Under the pieces are notes generated by a model. That model saw only the letters and a program-made list of their open reading frames with translations. It was not told the DNA's origin and ran no database searches. From Candidatus Hydrogenedentota bacterium (GTDB lineage: Bacteria > Hydrogenedentota > Hydrogenedentia > Hydrogenedentales > CAITNO01): DNA of 64,000 nucleotides. Shown one piece after another: positions 7,023-64,000 of this stretch. Made by a program: the position numbers and the translations under genes. The stretch lies in NCBI GenBank assembly GCA_012730105.1, contig JAAYBJ010000003.1:13450-77449 (forward strand). The letters run 5' to 3'. Numbering within the stretch: the first letter of the stretch is position 1; every line of letters starts with the position of its first letter.

Positions 7023-7245
7023 GGTTTCTTCCTTCTTGAAAGTACCGGCACAGTGTACCATATTCCTCCGCCGGGCACAAAAGCAAGACGCAAAGCTGAC
7101 GCAAAGCAAGACGCAATACCCGGGTCGCCGGACAAAATATTCTGTATCTGATGAACGCCGGCGATCAAGGCGTCTACCTGGACAGCGCTCGTGCATAGGA
7201 CAAAGGGGAGAGTAAGGTCCTGGTTCATTTGCGCTATTCCCAAAA

Positions 7246-7483
7246 CAACGCGTCATTCCGGTTTTTCGCGATGAAGAAGGGATCCGTATCGAAGGGTGTG
7301 GCCAGGCCGCGAAAAGACCGGAATCTATCATAAAAGCCATCAGCAGGAATAACATAGACTGCTGACCTACGAGACGAAGATTCTCTCCTTAAGTGACTTA
7401 ATCTGGATTCCGGTCTTTTTCGCGTTATCCGGCGGCGTTCTTTGATACAAGGCACAGGTCGCGAAAAAACCGGAATGACGTTT
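7246..7483. mobile_element. R1 MITE-like element, copy 1 (~240 bp, terminal inverted repeats CGTCATTCCGGTTTTTCGCG, two internal hairpin units)
   Basis: The left unit (7246-7330) and right unit (7400-7483) are reverse complements of each other. A near-identical element lies at 16535..16777. Confidence 0.55.
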
Positions 7484-7625: not shown

Positions 7626-7750
7626 GATTTCATCCTAAAAACGGCTGTTAACGCAGGGAAAACCTCTTAAAAGAAAGGACCCAAAGGACCAAAAAGACTT
7701 AAAGGAAACACTATGCAGGAAAGCGTTTTACAGTCCTTTTTTTTCTCTGG
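7626..7750. repeat. R2 palindromic repeat, copy a (TCATCCTAAAAACGGCTGTTAACGC...AAAGGACCCAAAGGAC...GTCCTTTTTT)
   Basis: Shares about 50 bp of near-identity, in reverse orientation, with 16925..17045 and 23886..24003. A partial end copy lies at 16381..16405. Confidence 0.5.
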
Positions 7751-7825
7751 TTTAAATAACACTCCTGAGTCTGACTGCCGTTTTTTGGGGAACACAGGTT
7801 ATCTGACACTAGGGGGCCAGAGGCA

Positions 7826-10008: not shown

Positions 10009-10149
10009 GAATGCACTCCTTCTCTTTTTGCGGTTATGGGCCGCGCGTTCACTCACCCAAAAGATAATTCCACACTGCCTTTTTGATCGGACAGATCCGA
10101 CCGATCTGACTGATCACCTTATTTATCGATTCAATAAAGCCCAAAGGGC

Positions 10150-14858: not shown

Positions 14859-15136
14859 AGGATATCGGTTACTTAAAATTTGTTTTTTTTATAAAAATGC
14901 ACTTGCGTTGGGCGGAACACAGGTAAGGGGGGCCGGGGAATGCGGAAGGCGGAAGGCGAAAGGCGAAACCCCTTTTATAGGATCCATAGGACTTATAGGA
15001 CCCATAAGACCCGCAAGAAAAGCGCCTTGACCTGAGCCGCGCCCCGAATGATTTCATTCCGCCTTCCGCATTCCGCATTCCGCTGTCAGGCATACCGATG
15101 AAACGCTTGATACAATTCCGCCTGAACCGATATCCT
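14859..15136. repeat. Nested inverted-repeat element in a divergent intergenic region
   Basis: Outer 12-bp perfect IR AGGATATCGGTT (14859-14870) / AACCGATATCCT (15125-15136). Inner GC-skewed IR GAATGCGGAAGGCGGAAGG (about 14966-14996) / CCGCCTTCCGCATTCCGCATTC (about 15085-15113). Central ATAGGAC direct repeats. Confidence 0.4.
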
Positions 15137-16245: not shown

Positions 16246-16385
16246 CATCGTATTCGTGCTCGTAACTCGTATTCGTAATCGGAAAAAACAGAACAGAGAT
16301 TCGATTACGAAGCACGAGTACGAAGCACGAGTACGAAGCACGAGTACGAAGCACGAGTACGAAGCACGAGTACGAAGCACGATTC
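16246..16385. repeat. 13-bp tandem repeat array (CGAAGCACGAGTA x about 5.7, 16308-16383) preceded by a degenerate inverted copy (16246-16285), forming a potential long hairpin
   Basis: Direct reading of the sequence; lies 35 bp after the stop of the dehydrogenase gene. Confidence 0.75.
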
Positions 16386-16534
16386 ATCCTAAAAACGGCC
16401 GTTGGATTCAGAAGTGGTTTTCAAACCAAGGCGCTTAGGGTCATTTCGCTGACAATTAATTATGAGTTCTGCTTTAAGTATAGGTAACCAAGAAGAGTGT
16501 CATGTTTTGATTTGTCTCAAAGACCCAAAAACAA

Positions 16535-16777
16535 CGCGTCATTCCGGTTTTTCGCGGTGGGAAAAAGAAATGTATCGAAGAGTGTGCCAAGCCGCGAAAA
16601 GACCGGAATCTATCTTTGGAAGCCGCGCATGAGGAACAGCCCGTGTCGGATTTATTTTTTAAGATGGGAAATGGGCATTCATTGCGGTGCGACGAATCTG
16701 GATTCCGGTCTTTTTCGCGTTGTACAGTACCGTTCTTCGATCCGAGCCAGAGATCGCGAAAAAACCGGAATGACGCG
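16535..16777. mobile_element. R1 MITE-like element, copy 2
   Basis: Same TIRs (CGCGTCATTCCGGTTTTTCGCG / CGCGAAAAAACCGGAATGACGCG) and same internal unit sequences as 7246..7483. The centre is variable. Confidence 0.55.
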
Positions 16778-16924
16778 ACTTGGGGTTGTTTATAATAAAA
16801 AGCGAAGTGCGTTGATGCGGGCGTTTTTATTCACCTTTTTTTTCGTATGTAGTGTTGACTTTTGCTGCGCCAAGGGCGTCACTTCTTCCGGGCGAAGTCC
16901 CGGACGAAGCGTAGGGACTTGAAG

Positions 16925-17045
16925 GATATAAAGGACGAAAAGGACTGTAAACCGCTCTCCTGATTAGTATGTCCTTTACGCCTCTTAAGTCCTTTCGGTC
17001 CTTTCTTTTAAGAGGCTTTCCTGGCATTAACTGCCGTTTATGGGT
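16925..17045. repeat. R2 palindromic repeat, copy b (reverse orientation)
   Basis: AAAGGACGAAAAGGAC...GTCCTTTCGGTCCTTTCTTTTAAGAGGCTTTCCTGGCATTAACTGCCGTTT matches the other copies. Confidence 0.5.
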
Positions 17046-17396
17046 TCATAACACGCGTGCTCATACGTGAGACCAAGCAGTATGAACAGGAGTGAACACC
17101 ATGGCTGACTTCATTATTTTTTGTCGATTACAAGCCGATAAAGCTCTTTTATACATTTCATTATCCGGCAAAAGTGCCGGATAATTCCTATTCAGAGAAC
17201 CACTGTCAAACGCTTTGCGCCGGTGTCAGTTGAGGATTACCCCTGTTTCATGGATGTGAATCGACGGGTATGTTTTTTTGACATCGCGGCGCCAGCGCGT
17301 GTACACTTCCCGCAACCGGATGTCAGGTTCCGGTACAGGCTACGCCGCAGACTGCTGAAAACAGCGGCACATTCACCCTACGACCCCGGCCGTTAA

Positions 17397-18758
<1,362 letters not shown>

Positions 18759-18785
18759 TGTAAGGAATGTCACGAATGAAACACA

Positions 18786-23761: not shown

Positions 23762-23885
23762 TTGTCGAATGTTCTTTTTGACAGCCCCTCAATAAGACCT
23801 TATAATCACCCTTTCCATGGCGACGGAAAACACTGCAACTATGCAATAAAAAAACGGCAGTTGAATTGTGAAGCGGTTTTCGAAC

Positions 23886-24003
23886 CAAAGGACATAAATG
23901 ACCAAAAGGACAGTAGAACATTCTCCCGGTTGGTGCGTCCTTGACGTCCTTTCGGTCCTTTTTTTTAAGAGATTTTCCCGGCGTTAACAGCCGTTTTTTT
24001 TTG
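23886..24003. repeat. R2 palindromic repeat, copy c
   Basis: CCAAAGGACATAAATGACCAAAAGGAC...GTCCTTTCGGTCCTTTTTTTTAAGAGATTTTCCCGGCGTTAACAGCCGTTTTT. Confidence 0.5.
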
Positions 24004-24052
24004 GATGAACGCCGGCAGAAACCCAAGCAAATCGTTAGGAAAGAGAAAACAA

Positions 24053-39718: not shown

Positions 39719-39857
39719 CACTCGCGTGGGATCCGGAAATCCCGGTTCGTCCCGCCACTTGTGGGCCCTGTTTTTTGTATGGTACAGTGAGGCTGCCGAT
39801 TTCACGTTGGTCCTGCGCAAAGACGGGGCCGGTGTTCCTGGCGATAAAGGTGCCCAG

Positions 39858-42197
39858 ATGAAATCCCAACTGATTCCTTCTCTGCTTCTGGCAATACTTG
39901 CGGCGGCATGTCCCTCTATGGGCACGGCGGATGACCAGCCTGAAAACCGGCCGGACGCCCGGCACCACCAGCGCCTGGTGGAAGACGACTGGCAGCTGCA
40001 GGAAGCGCGTCAGGGCCGGAACGCGGGAAGCCTGGAGGCGGTGCGCGCCGCCATGGTCAGGGCGGAAGCCCTGTACCAGGATCTTTCCGGGGTTGCCGGG
40101 ATGGAAGACTGCCGGGAACAAATGGAACTGTTCGCCCGACAAGTGGGCCGCGCCGAAGCCATGGAAGACAGCGAACGCCTGGCGCTTTATTACGCCCTGC
40201 GCTGGTTCACCCGCGAACTGGCGTTGCAGAATCCGCTGATCGCCGACACACCCCTGGTGTTCATGCAACGGCGCCGTTTCATCTGCCAGATGCTGCATGA
40301 ATATCTCGGCTATTATTATGATTACGGGGATATTGAAGGGGGCGGTGTCTTCATCCTCGAACAGCCCGGCAAGTCCTTTGCCGCGCGCGAACTGGTCCGC
40401 GGACGACTGCCACGGGGCAATTACACTACCCTGGCGCTTTCTTATGACGCAAAAACCATCCACTTTGCATTCGCGCCCCGCGCACCCGGGGAAAAACCGG
40501 ATTTCTATTCCGGTGAACGCCGCTGTTTTCATTTGTACAGCATGGACAGCGACGGAAACAACCTGCGGCCGCTGACGGAAGGACCTGACGACGATTTTGA
40601 TCCCTGCCCGCTGCCGGACGGCGGCATCGCGTTCATGTCCACCCGACGGGGCGGTTTCACGCGCTGCAACAACCCCTGGGAACCGCTGCCCGCCCACACG
40701 CTGCACCGGCTGGACCCGGACGGCGCAGTCCGTTGCCTGTCTTATCATGAGACCAGCGAGTGGCATCCGCAGGTGCTCCATGACGGGCGGATCGCCTACA
40801 TCCGATGGGACTATGTGGACCGTTCGGCGGCGCATTTCCACGGCATCTGGGCCACCAACCCCGACGGGACCGAAACGCGCCAGATTTTCGGCAATTATAC
40901 GCAACGGATCAACGCCTGTTATCAGCCGCATCCCGTGCCGGGTTCCCGCCGTCTGGCCTTTCTTGCCGGGGCCCATCACGCCAATGTCGGAGGATCACTT
41001 GTACTATTCGACCCCGCCAAAGCCGCCTTCGACCCCGCGACCGGGGAAGACGATTTCGGTTCCCTTGAACCGTTAACGCCGGAGGTATGTTTCGCGGAGA
41101 CGCCGGACGTGTGGCCTGAATCCTATTTTCACAGCCCCTGGCCGCTTTCAGAAGGCTATTTCCTCATCAGTTTCTCTTTTGATCCCCTGCCAGGCATGAG
41201 CGCCCGTACGAAAGAAGACACCGAAACGGGCATCTATCTGTGGGACCGGTTTGGAAACCTGGAACTCCTGTACCGTGAGCCCGGCATCTCCTGCATGTAT
41301 CCACTCCCCTTGAAACCACGGCCGATACCGCCCGCGCTGCCAAGCCGGCTTGATCCAACACTGGGCGATTCAGGAGAGTTTTATCTCGCCAATGTGTATG
41401 AAAGCCATTTACCATTCCCTAAAGACCGGCCGATCCACGGCTTGCATATTTATCAACTCCTGCCCAAAAGTGAAACGCATGTGGCCAACCAGCCGCGTAT
41501 CGGGTATGCCAATGCGGAATCCGCCCGGATGCTGCTGGGTTTCGTGCCGGTCGAAAAGGATGGTTCCGCCCGTTTCAAGGCGCCCGCCGGGAAACCGCTC
41601 GCCTTTCAGGCCGTGGATGAATCCGGCCGAGCGGTGCAGGGTATGCGCAGCGCCGTGTACCTGCAGCCGGGCGAACGCCGGAGTTGTGTGGGCTGCCATG
41701 AATCTCCGGAACGATCCGGAACTGTTCCCTTAGGAAAACAGATCGCCTTCGGCCGCGGGCCTTCCGAGATTACGCCCGGCCCGGACGGCGTCATGCCGTG
41801 GAGTTTTCCCAGGCTGGTGCAACCGATTCTGGACACGCACTGCGTCCGCTGCCATGGCGAAGCGGGCAATGCAAGACCATGCCTTGAGGCGAAGGTACAG
41901 GACGAATTTACTGAGGCTTACACCGTGCTGAAACCTTACGCGCGCTGGTACGAATGGGGCGGGGAAAGCATCAGCATAATTGTAACCCGTCCGGGCGAAA
42001 TGCCCGCCGACGTGAGTCCATTGACCGCCATACTGAATGATGCCAATCACGCGTCCGAACTGCGCCTGCCCGAGGCCGCGCAGCGAATCCTGTACTTGTG
42101 GCTGGACGGTAACGCGGCGTTTTACGGAACCTACTCGCCGACCGAGCGGCTCGCCCAGTTTGAAGGCAGTAAGGTGCCGCCTCCCGCGCTGCAGTGA
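39858..42197 (+). CDS. Secreted beta-propeller protein with C-terminal Planctomycete-type cytochrome c (PSCyt1-like) region, double CXXCH
   Basis: Signal peptide MKSQLIPSLLLAILAAAC. TolB/HzsA-like propeller segments. CVGCHESP and FPRLVQPILDTHCVRCHGEAGN, the latter matching the PSCyt1 consensus (V/I)xPILxxxCxxCHG. Confidence 0.8.
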   Translation: MKSQLIPSLLLAILAAACPSMGTADDQPENRPDARHHQRLVEDDWQLQEARQGRNAGSLEAVRAAMVRAEALYQDLSGVAGMEDCREQMELFARQVGRAEAMEDSERLALYYALRWFTRELALQNPLIADTPLVFMQRRRFICQMLHEYLGYYYDYGDIEGGGVFILEQPGKSFAARELVRGRLPRGNYTTLALSYDAKTIHFAFAPRAPGEKPDFYSGERRCFHLYSMDSDGNNLRPLTEGPDDDFDPCPLPDGGIAFMSTRRGGFTRCNNPWEPLPAHTLHRLDPDGAVRCLSYHETSEWHPQVLHDGRIAYIRWDYVDRSAAHFHGIWATNPDGTETRQIFGNYTQRINACYQPHPVPGSRRLAFLAGAHHANVGGSLVLFDPAKAAFDPATGEDDFGSLEPLTPEVCFAETPDVWPESYFHSPWPLSEGYFLISFSFDPLPGMSARTKEDTETGIYLWDRFGNLELLYREPGISCMYPLPLKPRPIPPALPSRLDPTLGDSGEFYLANVYESHLPFPKDRPIHGLHIYQLLPKSETHVANQPRIGYANAESARMLLGFVPVEKDGSARFKAPAGKPLAFQAVDESGRAVQGMRSAVYLQPGERRSCVGCHESPERSGTVPLGKQIAFGRGPSEITPGPDGVMPWSFPRLVQPILDTHCVRCHGEAGNARPCLEAKVQDEFTEAYTVLKPYARWYEWGGESISIIVTRPGEMPADVSPLTAILNDANHASELRLPEAAQRILYLWLDGNAAFYGTYSPTERLAQFEGSKVPPPALQ

Positions 42198-42204
42198 GTG
42201 AGGC

Positions 42205-42252
42205 GCACTGTGGACGATATGGACAGTATGGACGATATGGACAAGATGGACC
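42205..42252 (+). repeat. 9-bp-periodic ATGGAC tandem repeat (x5: acTGTGGAC GATATGGAC AGTATGGAC GATATGGAC AAGATGGAC)
   Basis: Direct reading. Lies immediately after the stop of the upstream gene and supplies four in-frame ATGs at the 5' end of the UDG ORF. A related repeat lies at 60249..60283. Confidence 0.75.
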
Positions 42253-42836
42253 GCGCGCTCGCACTTTGCCTTAAACGGGTGCGCGCCTGTCGCCGTTGCG
42301 CAGCCGCGCTGCCCTTGGGTCCCCGGCCCATTGTGCGCGCCCGAATCACAGCGCGTATCCTCATCGTTGGGCAGGCGCCCGGCCTCAAGGTGCATCAAAC
42401 AGGTATCCCATGGAACGACCCGAGCGGGGACCGCCTGCGCCGCTGGCTCGGCCTCGACCGTGAACAATTCTATGATGAGTCCCGGATCGCCATCATCCCA
42501 ATGGGCTTGTGTTATCCTGGTCGCAACCCACAGGGAGGTGACCTGCCGCCGCGAACGGAATGCGCTCCGGCATGGTTTCCTAAACTGCTCCCCCTCCTGC
42601 CAACTATTGCAACAACGATCCTTGCCGGCGCCTATGCCCAGAATGGGTACTTGGGTGAAAAGACAAAACCCACTCTGACGGAAACTGTCCGGAACTGGCG
42701 CGCCTATGCACCGGAATACTTCCCGCTCCCCCACCCCTCGTTCCGTAACAATCAGTGGCTGAAAAACAACCCCTGGTTCGAAGAGGAACTCGTGCCCGCG
42801 TTAAAGGCGCGGCTCCGCGAAATACTCAATTACTAG
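42219..42836 (+). CDS. Uracil-DNA glycosylase superfamily protein
   Basis: GQAPG motif in LIVGQAPGLKVHQTGIPW and C-terminal FPLPHPSFRN, typical of UDG-family enzymes. True start ambiguous (ATGs at 42219/42228/42237/42246; the GTG at 42198 is the ORF-track start). Confidence 0.75.
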   Translation: MDSMDDMDKMDRALALCLKRVRACRRCAAALPLGPRPIVRARITARILIVGQAPGLKVHQTGIPWNDPSGDRLRRWLGLDREQFYDESRIAIIPMGLCYPGRNPQGGDLPPRTECAPAWFPKLLPLLPTIATTILAGAYAQNGYLGEKTKPTLTETVRNWRAYAPEYFPLPHPSFRNNQWLKNNPWFEEELVPALKARLREILNY

Positions 42837-43131: not shown

Positions 43132-44943
43132 ATGATGAAGAAAAATGTGTTTATCTGCGTGTTGATTCTGGCGATTACAGGTCCGGCCTTTGCCGTGCAT
43201 ACCCCGGTACCGGATATGGATTCCTGTCCACCAACAGTGGACGAATACGGCACACCCATCAACTGGAACTTTGTTCCGCTGCCCCTGTTCAATATCAATG
43301 TGCTTGGCAGTACTGTAAATTTTACACCCATTGCCGGACAAGTGGACTTCTGTGCCTATACGGACATCATCTTTTGTTCCCTGGGACCTGTGGGGGATTT
43401 GGTACCTGAGGTAATGGCTTTTGCCAACCTGGTGCAATGCAACGGATTTAAACGGATTTACGAATGGACCTGTCCCTGCACAAGTACGGTACAAACAGGC
43501 GTGGTGCCGGACGGTGAATGTGTCACTTATGTTGAAGGAGAGACTTCGGAAGGGGAGATCGCATGTCAGCAAGAGTGGGTGCGGGGCAGTCTGGTCGAAA
43601 GTATCCCCGTGCACATGGATATCAATGGTCCTATTGACTTACAGGCGGAACTGCCAGTCACCGGCAACGGCATTCCGGACGGCCAGTATGAGCTTGGAAT
43701 TCTTGCGGCCATTTACAATGACGATACCCATCCCCTGCATGCAACCGTGGTTGCCGCCTATCAGGCGAACTATAAGGCGGTCAAAGATTTAATTGTGGAT
43801 GCCCTTGCCGCCGCGAATTTAAAAAATGACAAAGACCTTCGCCCGATTGTACAATCCGTCGCGCCCTATCTGGTAAGGGCTTTAAGCTCGATTCTGGCCG
43901 GCTTTGCCACTATGGCTGATCCCCAAACTAATATGGCGCTCGACCAGTTGCTTTTGCTGCTGGCGGAAATTGGTATTGCCCCGCCCGAGGGCGGCATAGC
44001 CGGGATTGCGACAGGTATTCCCGAACTGGGGCCGGAAGGCGACGCGGACGGCGGCGGCGCCACCAACCGTCAGGAGTATGAATACTTTGTAACAGTACTC
44101 GGCTATGGTCCGGCCGAGTACGTGGCCGCCGCTCTTGATCCCGCACAGGAACCGCCCGTGGAGAATGAAGGCGAAACTGAAACAGAAGGCGAAGGCGAAG
44201 CGGTGCCTGAAGGGGAAGGCGAAATCGTCGCCGAAGGTGAAGTGTCGTCCGAAGGCGAGGGCGAAGGGATGAGTGAAGGCGAAGCCCCATACGAAGGTGA
44301 ACCCTCCGGGGAAGGCGAGTTTGAATCTGAAGGCGAGATACCGGCCGAAGGGGAAATCGTTGTAGAAGGCGAGGGTGAAGCCGCTGCTGAAGGTGAAATC
44401 GTTGACGAAGGCGAGGGTGAAGCCGCTGCTGAAGGCGAAATCATTGAAGAAGGCGAGGGTGAAGCCGCTGCTGAAGGCGAAATCGTTGAAGAAGGCGAGG
44501 GTGAAACCGCTGCTGAAGGCGAAATCATTGAAGAAGGCGAGGGTGAAGCCGCTGCTGAAGGCGAAATCGTTGAAGAAGGCGAGGGCGAAGCGCCTGCAGA
44601 AGGTGAAGGCGAAGCGCCTGCAGAAGGTGAAGGCGAAGCGCCTTCAGAAGGTGAGGGTGAAATCGTTGCCGAAGGAGAAGGAGAAGCACTTGCAGAAGGA
44701 GAAGGTGAAGTCATTGCCGAAGGAGAAGGAGAAGCACTTGCAGAAGGAGAAGGTGAAGTCATTGCCGAAGGCGAAGGAGAAGCACCTGCAGAAGGTGAAG
44801 GCGAAGACGAGACTTCCAGCTGCTGCGGCACCTCTGGGAAAGACATGAACATCAGGAAACTCATGGACCGCACCATCGGTGATTGGTTATTAATCGGCAT
44901 GAGTCTGTTGGGATTGACGGCATTCTCCCTTGTCCGTAAATAA
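43132..44943 (+). CDS. Secreted acidic-repeat protein A: signal peptide, ~320-aa unique domain, ~215 aa of EGEGExxA-type tandem repeats, Cys-rich/GDWLLIG C-terminal anchor module
   Basis: Perfect GAAGGAGG RBS. Signal peptide [20 protein letters not shown]. Repeats run from about residue 340. C-terminus [42 protein letters not shown]. Confidence 0.85.
44160..44810 (+). repeat. Coding tandem repeats (24-bp basic period, 42-bp super-period) encoding [12 protein letters not shown](V/I)(E/D) units
   Basis: Direct reading. Generates frame-artefact ORFs on both strands (SPSPS... and KAKSLKK...). Confidence 0.8.
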
Positions 44944-45440: not shown

Positions 45441-48400
45441 ATGAAAAAGATACTGGTAAGTGTTTTGGGTCTTGCGATCTGCCTGCTGCCGATGGCGGTA
45501 TTTGCCGCTCCCGGTGATGTGCCCATGCCGGATACGGTCCTGGAGGCTGCCGTTGAAGCGGAAATCGGCGATGACGGGGTCAGCGGCGCTGTGGACAGCA
45601 CCCTGCTGCTGAACCTCGTCCAATTGGGCGGGCTCGATGATTTTCCCAACCAACTGGTCACCGGCGTAACGGACTTAACGGGGCTGGAAGCGGCAACAAA
45701 TCTCGAGTTTTTGCTGTTGTTAAACGGTGATATCGACAGTCTGGAACCAGTTGCGGATTTGCCCGCCTTAACCGGCCTGGCCCTGTTCGATATGGGCGTT
45801 GAGGACGCCGATGTGGCGGAACTTGCCGCCGGAACCGCTGAACCTGTTGCGTTACTGATTTCAAACCTGGGAACAGGAACTCCGAACGACCTGACCACCA
45901 CGGGTATTAATAGTATTGGTCAGATCGGCAGTATTGTGGAACTGTCTCTGTCGGGCTTGGGAAATGAATTTGACATCTCAGGTTTAAGCACCTTGTCGCT
46001 GGGGGATTTGGGTTTTGGTCTTGGACTGTCCATGGACGGCAATACCATTGTGGACGGGTTTGAAGTTATCGCCGGGTTTACAGGCCTGACGGCGCTTTCA
46101 CTTGGCCAAACAGGCATTACCAGTGCAGACTTGGACCTCGTTGACTGGTCCCTGATGACCAGCCTGGGGGAATTGCTGCTGCCCTTCAATGCCATTACGG
46201 ATATTTCCATGTTGCTGGATCTCGGAGCTCCGTCCGGCGCAATTATAGACCTTGCCGGCAACCCCCTTGATAATGCCGCTGTATGTACGCATATCCCCGC
46301 GTTAGTAACTGCCGGTTATACCGTTTTGGATGGCCAGGTTCTCCCCTGTGGTTCCCCAGTACTTACCCTGACTCTGAACGGTGTAGGCGAAATCAATCCC
46401 GCGCCAGGTGAGTACCGCTATGAGGTCGGTACGGAAGTGTTTCTAAATGCCAACCAGATCAGCGGCGGTGGTGTTTTTTCCCATTGGACTGGTGACGTGG
46501 CGGATCCTAGCAACCCGAACACCAGCATCGTCATGAATGCAGACGAGGCTGTGGAGGCGGTGTTTGTGGATGGCGACTATACATTGACGATCCAGTACGC
46601 CGGGGACGGAACGGGCGTTACCTCTCCCCCGGCAGGCGTATGGGCCTATCAGGACGGGGCTTCCGTTGGCTTGAATTTTACCCCCGACCCGGGCAATTTC
46701 TGGGGCGGCTGGCAGGGGGATCTTACGGGCATTATCGCCAATACGATCATCATGGACAGCGACAAAACGGTTACGGCCGTATTCGGCGCCACAGGTTATG
46801 ATTTGATCATCGGCGTAAATGATACAGATCTGGGCTTTACCTTTCCGGTGATGGGCACGTATCCCCTTGCAACGGGAACCGTGGTGGATATCAACGCGAT
46901 TGTGGACTTCTCCGAGCCAACCTATATTTTCGGTGAATGGACCGGTGATATCGGCACGGCCGATCCTGCCAACCCAGAACTGCAGGTCACCATGGACCAG
47001 GCGCGTACCGTCACCGCCAACTTCAGAAAACCTGAGTTAACCATCAGCATCACTGGGGAAGGGACAACGAATCCCGTACCGGGAGTATATCCGTATGACA
47101 ACGGCGCCTTTGCCGCTGTGACTGCGACACCCGCCGATGGATGGTTTTTCGTCGGTTGGCAAGGTGATGCGGAAGGGGCAGGTGAATTAAATATTTTGAT
47201 GGACGGCGACAAGGCGGTAACAGCGGTATTCGAACAGATTCCCGTCTATACGCTGACCATTAATGCCGCTGATGGTGGTTCCACTAATCCGCCAGCGGGA
47301 AGTTATCCCTATGATGAAGGTGCCGTTGTGGAAATAACTGCCACACCGGAGACAGGATGGCAATTCCTTCGCTGGGAGGGCGACGTTACCAGTACCGACC
47401 CCTCCACTTTGGTTAATATGGATGGCGATAAAACAGTAACGCCCGTTTTTGAAATTTTATCCTACGATGTCACCATTAATGTTGTAGGCAATGGAACGAC
47501 CTTGCCTGCCGCAGGTACCTCTCCATGGGATTACGGGTCGGTAGTGATGATCACGGCCACTCCTGCAACTGGATGGCAATTTGTACGCTGGGAAGGCGAC
47601 TTTTCTGTTCCGAATCCGGAAGTGCCCAACTTCGCTGAAGTAGAAGTGGACGGTCCGAAAACCGTAACCGCGGTGTTCGAACAGATTACCTATACACTGA
47701 CTATTTCAGTGGCAGGCGATGGCACTACAGATCCCCCTACAGGCGGGGTTTACACTTCAGGTACGCCTGTAACGATTACAGCCCAGCCTGCGGATGGTTG
47801 GAACTTTGCCAGATGGGAAGGGGATGTTTCCGGTACGGAATCCACACTATCGTTCACTATGGATAGCGACATATCCGTTACGGCGGTCTTTGAAGAGCAA
47901 ATAATTGAAGGCGAGGGTGAAACCCCTGTTGAAGGCGAAGGCGAAGCCCCTGTTGAGGGTGAAGGTGAAGAACCCATTGAAGGCGAAGGCGAAGAGCCCG
48001 TCGAAGGCGAAGGTGAAGAACCCGTCGAAGGCGAAGGCGAAGAGCCCGTCGAAGGCGAAGGTGAAGAACCCGTCGAAGGCGAAGGTGAAGAACCCGTCGA
48101 AGGCGAAGGTGAAGAACCTGTCGAAGGCGAAGGCGAAGAACCTGTCGAAGGCGAAGGCGAAGAACCTGTCGAAGGCGAAGGTGAAGAACCTGTCGAAGGC
48201 GAAGGTGAAGAACCTGTCGAAGGCGAAGGTGAAGAACCTGTCGAAGGCGAAGGTGAAGAACCTGTCGAAGGTGAAGGTGAAGCCCCTGTCGAAGGCGAAG
48301 GTGAAGAACCTGTCGAAGGCGAAGGTGAAGAACCTGTCGAAGGTGAAGGTGAAGCCCCTGTCGAAGGTGAAGGCGAAGAGCCTGTCGAAGGCGAAGGCGA

Positions 48401-48689
48401 AGAACCTGTCGAAGGCGAAGGTGAAGCCCCCGTTGAGGGCGAAGGTGAAGTAACCGCCGAAGGCGAGGGCGAAGAACCTGTCGAAGGTGAAGGCGAAGAG
48501 CCTGTCGAAGGCGAGGGTGAAACCCCCGTTGAGGGCGAAGGCGAGGGCGAAGAAGAAGCCTGCGGTTGCTGCCAGCAGAATGAAAAAGCCCTTACCATAA
48601 AAGAAATGGTAGAAAAGAGTTTGGGCGACTGGCTGTTAATCGGCGTAAGCCTTCTTGGACTTACGGCTTTGGCCGGTATGCGCAAATAA
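45441..48689 (+). CDS. Secreted acidic-repeat protein B, internalin-like: signal peptide, leucine-rich repeats, about 8 InlB-B-repeat (Listeria-Bacteroides repeat)-type domains, about 27 copies of EGEGEEPV, Cys-rich/GDWLLIG C-terminal anchor
   Basis: AAAGGGA RBS. Signal peptide [25 protein letters not shown]-like LxxLxxLxLxxNxI segments. Repeated YTLTIxxxGxGTxxPxxGxYxYxxGxxVxLxAxPxxGWxFxxWxGD modules. C-terminus [43 protein letters not shown]. Confidence 0.85.
47905..48555 (+). repeat. Near-perfect 24-bp coding tandem repeats (GAAGGCGAAGGTGAAGAACCTGTC x about 27) encoding EGEGEEPV
   Basis: Direct reading. Copies differ mostly at synonymous third positions (gag/gaa, ccc/cct, gtc/gtt). Confidence 0.85.
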
Positions 48690-57939: not shown

Positions 57940-60231
57940 ATGAACTTGCTTGTCGCGGCCAACCTCCTTGCCCTTCTTGTCACGCACACGCCTACAACAC
58001 TCGTCCATGAATTCCCTCTGGCTCAGGTCCGCTTGCTGGACGGGCCGTTCAAGGTCGCTATGGACCAGAACACGGTGTGGCTGCTGTCGCTGGATGCGGA
58101 CCGGTTGCTGGCGGGATTCCGAGAGTCTGCGGGGCTGGAACCCAAGGCCCCACGCTACGGCGGCTGGGAACAACAGGGCGTCGCCGGCCATTCGCTGGGC
58201 CATCACCTGTCAGCCTGCGCCGCCATGAGCGCCCAGGGCGACGCGCGCTTTACGGAACGGGTAAACTACATCGTCCATGAACTGGCCCTGTGCCAGGAGG
58301 CGGGCGGTGACGGCTATGTGGGCGCCATCCCGGACGGGCGCCGCGTATTTTCCGAAATCGCCCGGGGCGACATCCGTGCGGAGAATTTCAACCTGAACGG
58401 CGTTTGGGTGCCGTGGTACACCATGCACAAGGTCATGGCAGGGTTACGCGACGCGTGGCGTCTTGCCGGGAATGAGGAAGCACTGGCCGTCTACAAAAAA
58501 CTGGGCGATTGGGAATTGCAGGTGACAGACGCACTCACCCCGGAACAACTGCAGACCATGCTCAGCTGCGAACACGGCGGTATGAACGAGGTTGCCGCGG
58601 ATTTGTTTGCCGCCACGGGCGATGAAAAGTACCTGGAGTTAGCGCGGCGGTTTTATCACAAGGCGGTGCTGGATCCAGCGGCAAAGCACCATAATGCCTT
58701 GAACGGCCTGCACGCGAACACGCAGTTCCCGAAGTTCATCGGCCTGGCGCGTCAATATGAAGTCGCTGGTGACACATGGGCGGGCGAAGCATCCAGGTTC
58801 TTCTGGGAAACCGTGGTGCGCCATCACAGTTACGTCACGGGCGGTAACAGCGACCACGAGCACTTCGGTCCGCCGGATCAATTGTCGGAGCGGCTCAGCG
58901 ACCAGACCACGGAAAGCTGCAACACCTACAACATGCTCAAATTGACGCGCCGCCTGTTCATGCAGGCACCCAAGCCTGACTACGCGGAGTTCTATGAACG
59001 GGCCCTGTTCAACCACATCCTGGGATCCCAAGACCCGGCGACCGCCCGGGTGACCTATTATGTGCCCCTGAAATCCGGCTTGGAAAAGACCTACCAGACC
59101 CTGGACGACACCTTCTCCTGTTGCGTGGGCACGGGCATGGAAAACCATACGCAGTACGGGTCAAGCATTTATTTTCATAGTGATGACGCCCTGTATATCA
59201 ACCTGTTCATTGCTTCCGAACTTTCCTGTCCCGAAAAGGGGCTAACCCTGACGCAGGAAACACGCTACCCGGAGGAAGATGCCTCGCGATTCAAATTCGC
59301 CTGCACGCAGCCGGTTCGTTTAACCGTCTATTTGCGATATCCGGCGTGGGCAAAAGACGGCGCGTCCCTTAGCATAAACGGTGTCGCGGAAACGTTAAAA
59401 GCCACACCGGGTAGTTTCATTCCCCTAGTGCGGGAATGGAAAGATGGTGATGTGCTGTCCGTGAAATATCCCATGTCCCTGCGGACGGAAGCCATGCCCG
59501 ATAATGCCGCCCGGCTTGCCTTTTTCTACGGCCCCGTGCTGCTGTCGGGCGCGCTGGGCAAGAACGAATGCCCCCCGGCCAACATGCCGGTACTCATCGC
59601 CAACGAAAAACCTTTGGAACACTGCCTGGAACCCGTTCCCGGCGAATCGCTTACGTTCAAGACTTCCGGCATCGGCCATCCCGAAGACCTGACCCTGATT
59701 CCTTTCTACCGCATGCACCATCAGCGCCACATCGTCTACTGGGACCTGTTTACCCGGGAACAGTGGGAAGAACGACAGGCGGCCTACCGCGCGGAACAGG
59801 AGCGGCTGCGCCGGCTGGAAGCGCGCACCCTGGATTTTGTGCAGCCTGGTGAGATGCAACCCGAACGGGACCACGCCTTTGAAGGTGTAAACAGCCGCCA
59901 CGGATCGCACCTGGACCGCACGTGGCGCGACGCCGCCGACGGCGGATGGTTCGCGTTCACCATGCAGGTATCGCCGGACAAGCCCGTGGAGCTGGTCGTC
60001 ACTTATTGGGGCAGTGATGCCGGCCCGCGCACGTTCGACATCCTTGTGGACGGTACGGTCATTGCCACCCAGCAACTGGACAACCCTTCACCGGGCAACT
60101 TCTGGGATGTGGCCTATCCCGTTCCTTCTGAACTGACCCACGACAAGGAAACGGTGCGCGTCACCTTCCAAGCCCATCCGGGCAATATGGCAGGCGGCAT
60201 CTTCGGGCTGCGAACCGCAGTGCCGGAATAA
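57940..60231 (+). CDS. Glycoside hydrolase family 127-like (beta-L-arabinofuranosidase HypBA1-type, DUF1680)
   Basis: ESCNTYNMLKL and FSCCVGTGMENH correspond to the Glu/Cys and Cys-Cys zinc/catalytic motifs of GH127. 764 aa with a signal-like N-terminus. AGGAAAAA RBS. Confidence 0.85.
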   Translation: MNLLVAANLLALLVTHTPTTLVHEFPLAQVRLLDGPFKVAMDQNTVWLLSLDADRLLAGFRESAGLEPKAPRYGGWEQQGVAGHSLGHHLSACAAMSAQGDARFTERVNYIVHELALCQEAGGDGYVGAIPDGRRVFSEIARGDIRAENFNLNGVWVPWYTMHKVMAGLRDAWRLAGNEEALAVYKKLGDWELQVTDALTPEQLQTMLSCEHGGMNEVAADLFAATGDEKYLELARRFYHKAVLDPAAKHHNALNGLHANTQFPKFIGLARQYEVAGDTWAGEASRFFWETVVRHHSYVTGGNSDHEHFGPPDQLSERLSDQTTESCNTYNMLKLTRRLFMQAPKPDYAEFYERALFNHILGSQDPATARVTYYVPLKSGLEKTYQTLDDTFSCCVGTGMENHTQYGSSIYFHSDDALYINLFIASELSCPEKGLTLTQETRYPEEDASRFKFACTQPVRLTVYLRYPAWAKDGASLSINGVAETLKATPGSFIPLVREWKDGDVLSVKYPMSLRTEAMPDNAARLAFFYGPVLLSGALGKNECPPANMPVLIANEKPLEHCLEPVPGESLTFKTSGIGHPEDLTLIPFYRMHHQRHIVYWDLFTREQWEERQAAYRAEQERLRRLEARTLDFVQPGEMQPERDHAFEGVNSRHGSHLDRTWRDAADGGWFAFTMQVSPDKPVELVVTYWGSDAGPRTFDILVDGTVIATQQLDNPSPGNFWDVAYPVPSELTHDKETVRVTFQAHPGNMAGGIFGLRTAVPE

Positions 60232-60248
60232 AGGCGGATTGTTTGAAC

Positions 60249-60283
60249 CAATGGACGTAATGGACATCATGGACATAATGGAG
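60249..60283 (+). repeat. 9-bp-periodic ATGGAC repeat (CAATGGACG TAATGGACA TCATGGACA TAATGGAGC) encoding mini-ORF MDVMDIMDIMEPP
   Basis: Direct reading. Lies 18 bp after the GH127 stop. In-frame ATGs at 60251/60260/60269/60278; TAA stop at 60290. Confidence 0.75.
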
Positions 60284-60360
60284 CCGCCCTAAATGATAAT
60301 GGCGCAAACAACCCAAGTGAACACCACAGGGTATTGCTCAACCCTGCCTACCCCCAAAAC

Positions 60361-61461
60361 CTAATCCGAGGTCTTCCGCATTAAGCGCACGGCCAGGGCA
60401 AGAAACAGCAGGGCAAGACCGCATTGCCCGAGGATGGGCCGCCACAACGCGCGCGGACCGACTCCCTTTGTGACTATGCCTTGAACGATTTCCAGAAACC
60501 AGCGTAGAGGGTCGAGGAAGGTGAGGTATTGAAACAGGACGGGCATGTTGCGAACGGGAAAGATGAAGCCGCTGAGCAGCACGCAGGGCATCATGAAGAA
60601 AAAGGCGGTGAGCAGGGCCTGCTGCTGTGTTTTGGCGGTAGTGCTGATGACGAGGGCGAGGCCAAGATTACCAGCGATGTACACACCGGCCATGACATAG
60701 AGCAGCAGGAGGCTGCCCTGCACGGAAATGCCGAACATCACGCGGGTCAACACAAGCATCATAGTCATGATAAGGTACCCGAGCACCATATAGGGAATGG
60801 TCTTGCCGAGGATAAACTCGGTCTTGCCGATGGGCGTGACCAGCAGTTGTTCGATGGTGCCGATTTCCTTTTCACGCACGATGGCGATACTGGCCAGCAG
60901 GATGCTGACCACAAGCAGCATGACGGCGATGAGCCCGGGCACAAAATAGAACTTGCTTTCCAGGTTCGGGTTGAACCAGGCGCGCGTTTCAATGTCGATG
61001 GCACCGGGAAAGGACGCGGCCGAGTTCCCCAGGTGACCCGTGAGCACCTGGCTGGCGTAGTTGAACACGATGGCGGTGCTGTTGCTGTCCGTGGCGTCGG
61101 CGAGCAGCTGTACCCGGGCAGTGCGCCCGCCACGCAGGTCGCGCTCGAAGCCGGCCGGGAAATGGAACACACAGCGGACCTGCCCGGCGTCGAGGACCCG
61201 TGCCATGTCCGACTGCCGTTCGAGCGGCTCGATGATGTCGAAATAGCCGCTGCCGGTGAAGGCGGCAATAAGCGCGCGCGACGAGGGGGTCTGGTCGAGG
61301 TCGAGGACCGCCGCGCGGATATGGGTCACGTCGGTGGTGAGCGCGAAGGCGAAAATGAGCATCTGCAGCACGGGCATGAGGAGGATCATGGCGCGCATGC
61401 GCGGGTCGCGCAGCATCTGCAGAAACTCCTTGATTAACATTTCGCGGATTCGGCGGAACAT
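60361..61461 (-). CDS. ABC-2 family transporter permease
   Basis: About 6 TM helices with a large N-terminal periplasmic loop; ABC-2/YhhJ-like pattern. Confidence 0.85.
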   Translation of the reverse strand: MFRRIREMLIKEFLQMLRDPRMRAMILLMPVLQMLIFAFALTTDVTHIRAAVLDLDQTPSSRALIAAFTGSGYFDIIEPLERQSDMARVLDAGQVRCVFHFPAGFERDLRGGRTARVQLLADATDSNSTAIVFNYASQVLTGHLGNSAASFPGAIDIETRAWFNPNLESKFYFVPGLIAVMLLVVSILLASIAIVREKEIGTIEQLLVTPIGKTEFILGKTIPYMVLGYLIMTMMLVLTRVMFGISVQGSLLLLYVMAGVYIAGNLGLALVISTTAKTQQQALLTAFFFMMPCVLLSGFIFPVRNMPVLFQYLTFLDPLRWFLEIVQGIVTKGVGPRALWRPILGQCGLALLFLALAVRLMRKTSD

Positions 61462-62595: not shown

Positions 62596-64000
62596 GGTTG
62601 CCTCCCCCCCGCGTTGGCGGCCGAAGCAGCCTCCTCCCGGTCCACCTGTTCGATCAACGACACAAACACATCCTCCATGGAGGGCGTGATTTCGCGGACA
62701 TGAGCCGGGGCGGACCCGTACTCCTCGAAAGCCCGGTTCACCGCGCCGGCGACGGTTTCGGGATCCGCGACCACGAGGTGGATGCCCGCGCCGAACAGGG
62801 CCGCCTCGCGCACCCCGGGCAGCGCGGCCAGCGTTTCGATCAGGTCCTGGGGCGCGTCACAGGCGACGTCAAGAATGCGCTCGCGCATCACGCCGGTCTT
62901 CAGTTCGAGGGGCGTGCCCAGGGCGATCATCCGGCCCCGGTAAATCATGGCGAGCCGGTCGCAGTATTCGGCCTCCTCCATGTAGTGGGTGGTGACAAAT
63001 ACCGTCACGCCGTTCCCAGCCATGTCGTAAATGAGGTCCCAGAAACGCCGCCGGTTCAAGGGGTCCACCCCGCTGGTCGGCTCGTCGAGGAAAAGCACGG
63101 GCGGTTCGTGCAGTACGGCGCAGGCCATGGCAAGGCGCTGTTTCCAGCCTCCGCTGAGCACACGCGCCGGGCTCTGACGCCGTTCGCGCAGGCCCGTCAT
63201 GTCAAAAGCCCAGTCCTTGCGCGCGGCAAGGCGCCGCCCGGATAGCCCGTAGATCCCCCCGTAAAAATTAATGTTCTCCTCGACCGTCAGATCCTCGTAC
63301 AGGGAAAAGCGCTGGCTCATGTAGCCGATGTTCTTCTTGATGGCTTCGGGCTGGGTTCGCACATCGAAACCCGCCACCGTTCCCGAGCCTTCCGTCGGCG
63401 CAAGCAGCCCGCAGAGCATGCGGATGGTGGTGCTTTTCCCGGCGCCGTTCGGGCCTAGAAACCCGAAGATTTCGCCGCGCGCCGTTTCAAAACTCACCCG
63501 GTCCACCGCGGTAAACTTGCCGAAACGCCGGGTAAGCCCTTCGACGCGCACGGCAGGTCCGTCCGTCACGGAAGGCGGGGTATGGGAAGCAGCTTCGGAA
63601 ACCTGCCCGGGATGGGCCTCGGACGCTCCGTCCGCGCCCAGCACGGCCACGAAGACATCCTCCAGGGATGGAGTCTGCTCTCCGAGGTCTTCCGCGTCCA
63701 GGCCGGAGGACGCGATGGCCGCGAGCGCGTCCCGGCGCGCCCCCGCAATGTCGTCGGCCACCACATGCACCTGCGCGCCGAACACGTCCACGCTGGCACC
63801 GGACAAATGTGCGCGCAGCATCCGGGCGAGCTCCCTCGCACGCGTGCTGCGGAATGCCGTCAGACCACGATGCATCAGGCCCTTGATTTCACGGGGGCTA
63901 CCCTGGGCCAGCAGGCCGCCCCGGTCAAGCAGCGCCAGCCGGCCGCAGCGTTCCGCCTCATCGAGATAGGCGGTGCTTACGAGTATGGCCACATCCTGTT
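62592..64000 (-). CDS. ABC transporter ATP-binding protein with tandem ATPase domains (RbbA/YhiH-like); 5' end runs off the window
   Basis: Complete second domain ([37 protein letters not shown]), preceded by the C-terminal part of a first ABC domain ([14 protein letters not shown]). The frame is open to nt 64000. Confidence 0.9.

Follow-up and report, generated by a model that had tools for sequence, protein, structure and literature searches.

The DNA analyzed here is a stretch of 64,000 nucleotides from Candidatus Hydrogenedentota (hereafter, the window). Among its genes are those for a PAS histidine kinase, a protein with an HZS_alpha domain and a member of the uracil-DNA glycosylase (UDG) family, in an order that is conserved in relatives, with the contigs L130, L131 and L132 sharing the HZS_alpha–UDG portion. 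A sequence-only reading of the window had called the middle gene PSCyt1, but Pfam gives for it an HZS_alpha middle domain only. The same reading had drawn attention to two arrays of 9-nucleotide units (nonamers), with five and four units of ATGGAC, just downstream of two large genes. Both arrays exist (arrays 1 and 2; Table 1), except that the last unit of the second is ATGGAG, and both lie close to a stop codon, array 1 following the TGA of the HZS_alpha-domain gene (42195-42197) after 13 nt and array 2 following the TAA of a GH127 gene after 19 nt. Array 1 does come after a stop codon, but it is not merely 3' of a gene, as it begins exactly at the start codon called for UDG. Array 2 occupies the spacer between two convergent genes, GH127 and that of an ABC-2 permease. 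Tandem Repeats Finder reported period 9 for both arrays, with scores of 54 (array 1) and 52 (array 2); for array 1 a period of 18 scored better, with 91% matches.

Table 1. Genes, nonamer arrays and MITE copies considered in the text (positions in the window)
Feature	Position	Strand	Description
MITE copy 3	7634..7790	-	3' arm is the plus-strand GGAC array 7674-7706
Solitary array GATCGGACA GATCCGACC GATCTGACT GATC	10085..10115	+	between two minus-strand surface-protein genes
Solitary array ATAGGATCC ATAGGACTT ATAGGACCC ATAAGACCC	14977..15012	+	loop of a long inverted repeat
MITE copy 2	16388..17049	+	nhmmer matches 16388-16437 (E = 6e-7) and 16907-17049; flanking duplication TTCAT
MITE copy 1	23847..24003	+	TIR, AAGGAC-type x3, conserved 25-nt centre, GTCCTT x3, tail, TIR
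Upstream gene, 823 aa, HZS_alpha middle-domain protein	39726..42197	+	from Pfam
Array 1	42210..42252	+	five 9-nt units, GTGGACGAT ATGGACAGT ATGGACGAT ATGGACAAG ATGGAC; in frame with UDG
UDG family gene	42210..42836	+	as called in public assemblies
Segment of 20 nt 5' of array 2, AAAGGCGGATTGTTTGAACC	60230..60249	+	overlaps the GH127 stop codon
Array 2	60250..60283	+	four 9-nt units, AATGGACGT AATGGACAT CATGGACAT AATGGAG; non-coding
13-codon ORF, MDVMDIMDIMEPP and stop	60251..60292	+	from sequence

The first unit of array 1 is exactly where gene callers place the start of UDG. It reads GTGGAC in this lineage, with GTG as the start codon, and ATGGAC, with ATG as the start codon, in L128. The array encodes the peptide (M/V)DDMDSMDDMDKMD, and Pfam places the onset of the UDG domain at about residue 47 of the open reading frame. 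Orthologues with 96% (P0001) and 85% (P0002) identity have kept the array, and both proteins have the N-terminus MDDMDSMDDMDKMD. In an orthologue of 75% identity (L130) the counterpart of array 1 is ATGGATACT GTAGACCAA TCGGACAAG ATGGCC, encoding MDTVDQSDKMAH; it is a unit shorter, matches at 23 of 33 positions and lacks two of the four aligned ATGs, and its cores are GGAT, AGAC, GGAC and GGCC, GGAC having been partly lost. In the protein P0003, 20 residues precede VRAC as compared with 23 here, a difference of one unit. The tails that lead up to the conserved VRACR motif in other UDG homologues are unrelated in sequence and roughly 6-40 residues long, and the length of the tail encoded by array 1 is thus unremarkable.

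Comparison of array 1 with L128 revealed 1 difference in 43 nt, a level of conservation that is reached by 14% of the 43-nt windows in the alignment and hence is not significant. No copy-number polymorphism was seen among L131, L132, L128 and L129. Because the array has decayed in L130 and its conservation is matched by 14% of windows, it behaves as a neutrally evolving translated repeat; judged from the sequence, array 1 is a translated, in-frame, low-complexity N-terminal tail that evolves neutrally, at the average rate of the gene. It resembles in-frame coding repeats in that its unit is a multiple of three nucleotides, it lies inside the open reading frame, the frame is kept across a change in copy number, and the tail is poorly conserved. 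It differs from ordinary coding repeats in that its core and pitch are common to non-coding repeats of the same genome and in the lack of copy-number polymorphism in the few strains compared.

The repeats are not confined to these two sites. When the window was searched for three WWGGAC units spaced 9 bp apart, two mismatches being allowed, 14 matches were found as compared with 0.09 expected, which bears out the earlier view that the repeats are non-random and recurring. When three units of GGAC were sought with up to 1 mismatch, 9 arrays were found at period 9 (0.49 expected) and 0-1 at each of the other periods from 5 to 14. ATG is not the common feature that it had been taken to be, as arrays of equal pitch elsewhere have AAGGAC, TAGGAC or ATCGGAC cores. 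Thus, AAAGGAC cores are found at 7674-7706, 16915-16945 and 23888-23911 and, on the minus strand, at 23937-23960, and the two solitary arrays of Table 1 have the cores GATCnGAC (at 10085) and ATAGGAC (at 14977). Three of these intergenic sites with other cores are parts of one repeated element, the MITE that is described below. M-D-x coding is confined to arrays 1 and 2 and is no property of the family, other arrays having stop codons in the matching frame. In every array, the differences between units fall mostly in 2-3 spacer positions.

The DNA examined comprised about 81 kb of this genome (the window and its extensions in L001 and L154) and about 300 kb of relatives, and ENA, JGI and Logan metagenomes contain the same species. 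In the 81 kb there are two arrays of each core type: ATGGAC at 42210 and 60250, TATAGGAC at 14977 and L154:4979, and GATCGGAC at 10085 and L001:14393. No flank homology was detected within these pairs (all p > 0.2), arrays 1 and 2 sharing the ATGGAC core alone. GGAC is present in five of the eight non-MITE period-9 arrays of the 81 kb, as compared with about 7% by our own estimate for a random 9-mer. The generic patterns WWGGAC x4 and ATGGAC x4 cannot be used to trace the family: WWGGAC x4 matches viral contigs in large numbers, and ATGGAC x4 gave 81 viral stretches. Those looked at individually proved to be coding repeats of a G-x-D or collagen-like type, although an automated filter put just 7 of the 98 ATGGAC x4 matches in that class. 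Resemblances to DnaA boxes, sigma-54 sites and rut sites were considered and dropped, the common core being just GGAC. A further period-9 repeat, AATGTAAGG AATGTCACG AATGAAAC at 18757-18782, overlaps the stop codon of a glutamate dehydrogenase gene and lacks the GGAC core.

The best-defined setting of the nonamers is a MITE with a consensus of 173 bp and no open reading frame. It consists, in order, of the TIR CCTAAAAACGGC, about 28 nt, a 5' arm, a 25-nt centre, a 3' arm, a tail and the second TIR, the two TIRs (CCTAAAAACGGC...GCCGTTTTTAGG) being complementary in the consensus at 12 of 12 and then 15 of 17 positions. The arms (AAAGGACTT AAAGGACAT AAACGACCA AAAGGACAG and GTCCTTTAC GTCCTTTAA GTCCTTTCG GTCCTTTCT in the consensus) are inverted and sub-terminal, with three to five units of AAAGGACnn on one side and of GTCCTTTnn on the other, depending on the copy, and their units begin about 40 bp inside the termini. 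Exact 5-bp AT-rich target duplications are present at seven copies (ATCAT, ATAAC, ATAAT, ATAAA, TTTAA, TTGAA and TTCAT), two further copies have a duplication with one mismatch, and older copies have none. In addition to the three copies in the window there are at least 13 distinct ones elsewhere in Candidatus Hydrogenedentota metagenomes, with flanks unlike those in the window. A pattern taken from the element matched twice in GTDB genomes, both times in the MAG RA.bin58 and at sites whose flanks are unrelated; in JGI metagenomes it matched 17 stretches, three of them by chance, and in viral contigs it matched none. In L148 a solo 3' half with five units adjoins a stop codon. As for orientation relative to genes, ten copies are co-oriented, many of these sitting in convergent spacers, two are anti-oriented, and four are in divergent spacers.

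The spacers in the MITE arms are specific to the unit and conserved between copies, and they do not pair across the arms. Conserved yet unpaired spacers are more in line with recognition repeats than with a stem under selection for its stability, and the arms are most plausibly repeated recognition sites for a mobilizing transposase or an accessory protein. Multiple sub-terminal repeats that are bound by transposase are known from the TnsB sites of Tn7, the MuA sites of Mu, the ends of IS21 and the plant elements Ac/Ds and En/Spm, and 5-bp duplications are also made by Tn7, Mu and Tn402. Like those ends, the MITE has several direct short motifs near each end, with the ends inverted, a conserved core and variable spacing bases; unlike them, its units are just 9 bp, abut one another and start about 40 bp inside the termini, and binding to them is inferred. 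All TIR matches in the DNA examined were copies of the MITE itself, and neither an autonomous partner or transposase nor a subfamily with ATGGAC arms was found there. Ends in CC together with a duplication of 4-5 bp would presumably fit IS1380, which we take as a lead only.

Known bacterial MITEs include Correia/NEMIS of Neisseria, RUP and BOX of Streptococcus pneumoniae, ERIC/IRU of enterobacteria and Nezha of cyanobacteria. The 173-bp element resembles them in its size (about 170 bp), TIRs, short target duplications, lack of an open reading frame and capacity to form a hairpin, and in having dispersed intergenic copies, often by gene ends, some of them nested or truncated. It departs from the named families in that its arms are contiguous inverted arrays of three to five nonamers, each with a 7-nt core and a 2-nt spacer, and also in its 5-bp AT-rich duplication, its host and the occurrence of solitary arrays with related cores outside the element. 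A search of the window against Rfam at gathering thresholds found no family there, and full-text searches of the literature on Hydrogenedentes repeats and on bacterial MITEs with sub-terminal tandem repeats gave nothing relevant. The element thus appears to represent an undescribed family in an uncultured candidate phylum, with unusual arms of abutting nonamers.

We also considered the MITE as an RNA hairpin or terminator, and rejected this on account of modest z-scores (predicted folds with z of -0.8 to -2.4, modestly better than shuffles), mixed orientation and the absence of a terminator-like site call at copy 1. A perfect sigma-70 consensus (TTGACA-17-TATAAT, 12/12) at 23778-23806 points into copy 1 and into the gene at 24005, which is DUF5703/GH95-like; should the promoter be real, copy 1 would lie in a 5' untranslated region and could not be a strong terminator. 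An insertion of about 470 bp (16438-16906) is nested in copy 2 and cuts it in two within the first arm unit; the insertion is itself a second dispersed repeat, with internal inverted repeats (ACGCGTCATTCCGGTTTTTCGCG...), a partial copy at 7239-7329 and further occurrences at L137:1-471, L137:5614-5967, L141:1-279, L142:4167-4520 and L144:1331-1605. In the strain contig L001 the sequence is no longer that of the window from about 16821 onward, a position that falls within the 470-bp repeat.

What connects array 2 with the MITE is its 5' flank. The 20 nt that precede it (AAAGGCGGATTGTTTGAACC) resemble the MITE segment that precedes the 5' arm (TCTGAAGCGGTTTTCAAACC, or ..TTTTCGAACC in a window copy), and in an anchored alignment the flank scored 7, a score reached by 0.2% of 20,000 window positions (p about 0.002). 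An nhmmer profile built from external MITE copies only gave a weak match at 60242-60282 (E = 0.05). The match of the flank is short, at 20 nt, the core is AATGGAC as compared with AAAGGAC in the MITE, and the 3' flank is unrelated to the MITE. Given the resemblance of the preceding 20 nt to the pre-arm segment, array 2 is probably a truncated and diverged MITE half, a relic beside the GH127 stop codon. By the same anchored alignment the flanks of array 1 have no similarity to the MITE, 31% of window positions scoring as well.

The 13-codon open reading frame that had been noticed in array 2 is indeed present, but we judge it from its sequence to be incidental, a by-product of the ATGGAC core, rather than the source of a functional peptide. 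No Shine-Dalgarno-like sequence is visible upstream of it. Four contigs with GH127 orthologues (L171, L167, L168 and L170) have neither an array nor such an open reading frame after the gene, and in L165 a different nonamer array follows GH127. Among nine contigs of the same species array 2 does not vary, but since the contigs are 100% identical throughout, the comparison has low power to reveal copy-number polymorphism. It is also identical in a relative of 88% identity (L163/L164), where it falls within a 245-nt tract (60251-60494 as compared with L163) that is 100% identical in surroundings of about 90% and that runs from the array through the spacer into the 3' part of the ABC-2 gene. A second such tract is found at 62795-62894. 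These tracts suggest recent recombination between lineages, and since array 2 lies inside a probable recombination tract, its identity in the 88% relative is uninformative as to conservation. In the region of array 2 (60252-60297), TGGACA and TGGACG units are one mismatch from the -35 consensus and, with CATAAT or AATGAT 16 nt downstream, make promoter-like sites directed antisense into the ABC-2 operon; three such sites were found as compared with 0.3 expected in the region.

Solitary arrays show turnover among relatives. The array at 14977 also scores better at period 18 with Tandem Repeats Finder. It lies in a divergent intergenic region within an inverted repeat of 7-mers (of the type GGAAGGC and its complement, at 14937-14968 and 15055-15083) for which the predicted fold has z = -5.3. 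Its sister of equal core in the same genome, L154:4979-5012, is about 2.5 kb past the end of the window and precedes the -35 box of a TetR-efflux operon by about 50 nt; it is missing from an 88% relative, in which the adjoining TetR promoter is conserved. The sister of the 10085 array is at L001:14393-14422. Between GH127 and a ygiQ-type radical-SAM gene, L165 and L166 have a palindromic TATAGGACC / GGTCCTATA array, and in L167 and L169 a GTCCTAC-type array, partly homogenized in L169, lies 50-85 nt upstream of the ygiQ-type gene. Arrays with TAGGAC/GTCCTA cores are thus found upstream of ygiQ in three related species (L165:10185-10225, L167:13759-13793 and L169:13738-13764), in differing orientation and with differing upstream neighbors, and, as far as sequence goes, their persistence could mean function. 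L168, L170 and L171 have no array at the GH127/ygiQ positions. The third unit of the L167 array has CGAC, as does the third unit of the MITE 5' arm. Perfect, recent expansions are seen in L169 (ACGTCCTAC x3) and L148 (GAAAGGACC x3). The 14977 array is invariant in four metagenome contigs in which a 13-mer tandem repeat, CGAGTACGAAGCA at 16302-16382, does vary, with six copies in the window, five in L007 and three in L001 and L004; the 13-mer is a true strain-level VNTR, unlike the invariant 9-mer arrays.

Our preferred reading, to which we give about even credence, is that the arrays are lineage-specific nonamer repeats acting at the DNA level, with the MITE arm as archetype, array 2 as a MITE relic, array 1 as an in-frame repeat and neither as an RNA target. 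There would be in this lineage a set of repeats with an invariant WWGGAC core of 6-7 nt and a variable spacer of 2-3 nt, of which the pair of MITE arms would be the source as well as the best-defined carrier. The number of units would drift by slippage, as is seen in the MITE arms, and truncation would leave solo arms at AT-rich target sites at gene boundaries. Array 2, with its small open reading frame as a by-product, would be one such diverged half, and array 1 would be a nonamer repeat of the same kind, of putative descent from a MITE arm, that gains or loses whole units inside the UDG frame. Because 9 nt make three codons, array 1 would be tolerated and translated; and because the targets of the MITE are AT-rich pentamers, which cluster at gene ends in a genome of 57% G+C, arrays would come to lie near stop codons. 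Were this so, MITE arms could be the origin of solitary short repeats both at gene boundaries and within reading frames. For annotation, the analysis removes a tempting false lead (micropeptides or CsrA sites) and identifies the odd MDDMDSMDDMDKMD start of UDG as a translated repeat. Against descent of the arrays as relics stands the presence, in about 81 kb, of two arrays for each of three core types without flank homology, which relic decay alone does not predict, and the pattern of invariant core and variable spacer could reflect present-day selection and not inheritance.

Two other readings at the DNA level have to be weighed against the one that we prefer. It is unlikely, yet worth retaining, that an oligomerizing host protein (ribbon-helix-helix, AbrB/MraZ-like or similar) recognizes WGGAC at a 9-bp pitch, with the solitary arrays as landing pads for regulatory or architectural roles and the MITE copying or spreading the sites. 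We keep this reading because identical cores recur without flank homology, because in three species an array persists at 50-105 nt before the start of ygiQ in spite of different upstream neighbors, and because core and spacer are partitioned in every array; direct and inverted units within single arrays (L165 and L001:14393) and the position of the L154:4979 array upstream of the TetR-efflux -35 box also agree with it. In their short, abutting units, which share a conserved core and combine in direct and inverted order, the arrays recall the operators of ribbon-helix-helix proteins, such as the 7-bp heptads of the omega protein of pSM19035 and the 8-bp metboxes of MetJ, which form arrays of 2-10 units; the nonamers differ from these in their 9-bp pitch, in their scattered and heterogeneous positions (over a start codon, in convergent spacers and in divergent spacers) and in their turnover between close relatives, as when the TetR-upstream array is missing beside a conserved promoter or array 1 decays at the gene-average rate. 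Moreover, neither a candidate for an array-binding protein nor a regulon was found in the DNA examined, and as cores differ between arrays, a single specificity would rest on just 4 bp. More specifically, and with a probability that we set lower, the WGGAC arrays might be landing pads of a dedicated Hydrogenedentota protein, a domesticated transposase DNA-binding domain or an oligomerizing repressor that coats three to five units, the solitary arrays forming a regulatory or architectural network seeded by the MITE. If a protein does read WGGAC at this pitch, the arrays would mark a network of binding sites spread by a mobile element, with candidate sites upstream of ygiQ, upstream of the TetR-efflux operon and on the UDG start. 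Equally improbable, in our judgment, is that the arrays are independent microsatellites born of slippage, by local duplication of a 9-mer and then of an 18-mer, with GGAC present by coincidence or through compositional or mutational bias and without any connection to the MITE. Short tandem repeats of other kinds (6-, 7-, 12- and 13-mers) abound in the intergenic DNA of this genome, among them the 13-mer that goes from six to five to three copies between strains; a period of 18 gives arrays 1 and 14977 a higher score; perfect recent expansions exist; and arrays lack flank homology to one another. Microsatellites would not, however, account for the excess of GGAC among non-MITE period-9 arrays, for its periodicity at pitch 9 only, for the concentration of unit differences in the spacer or for the MITE-like flank of array 2, and the flagged arrays showed no copy-number polymorphism in the contigs compared.

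The remaining readings, which the sequence-only reading had raised, place the function in RNA or in translation, and strand independence, inverted arrangements, unstructured RNA and orthologue decay together disfavor an RNA role, a conserved multi-start and a peptide function. That the arrays are multi-GGA targets in untranslated regions for a CsrA/RsmA-type protein, as a sponge or for translational control of UDG, is scarcely credible to us. An (A)NGGA-like motif is indeed present in each unit, the 18 nt from one unit to the next but one are a spacing favorable for the bridging of two sites by a CsrA dimer, array 1 overlaps the UDG initiation region, and the arrays are single-stranded in predicted folds. 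In their several close GGA motifs, one of them over an initiation region, they recall the clusters in sponges of the CsrB/RsmZ type, whereas their motifs are not set in hairpin loops, their pitch is strictly 9 nt and the extended consensus is lacking; no csrA gene was noticed in the DNA examined. The GGAC strand, moreover, is independent of transcription: MITE copies occur in both orientations, the L167 and L169 arrays read GTCC in the sense direction, and the 10085 array lies between minus-strand genes. The predicted folds of arrays 1 and 2 do not surpass those of shuffled sequences (z = +0.13 and -0.51) and have no GGA-loop hairpins, the GGA motifs of the MITE are buried in the arm helix, the motif has decayed in the 75% UDG orthologue, and Rfam found nothing in the window at gathering thresholds. 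Very unlikely, too, is a translational device, in which in-frame ATGs would give heterogeneous UDG N-termini or aid re-initiation, or a real M-D-x micropeptide from the open reading frame at 60251. Array 1 offers four to five in-frame starts within 45 nt, from 13 nt after the upstream stop, and the length of the UDG tail from any of them is within the range of homologues; yet ATG is limited to arrays 1 and 2 in a family with a WWGGAC core, the 75% orthologue retains just two of the ATGs, and the open reading frame at 60251 has neither a Shine-Dalgarno-like sequence nor, as described above, a counterpart in GH127 orthologues. As to the suggestion of a protein-binding iteron, a DNA-level recognition repeat comes near to the reading that we prefer, but the iteron itself does not fit: plasmid-type iterons have units of about 17-22 bp beside a rep gene and an AT-rich unwinding element, whereas the units here are 9 bp, and no rep gene was found among the neighboring open reading frames scanned (the HZS_alpha-domain gene, UDG, GH127 and the ABC-2 permease gene).

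Finally, we note that the window also contains coding repeats of a different kind. The open reading frames 43132-44943, which has no Pfam match, and 45441-48689 encode repetitive proteins rich in E and G, and long coding repeats with periods of 24, 42 and 96 nt (GAAGGCGAAGGTGAAGAACCTGTC x25.6) are found at 44167-44806 and 47907-48521.
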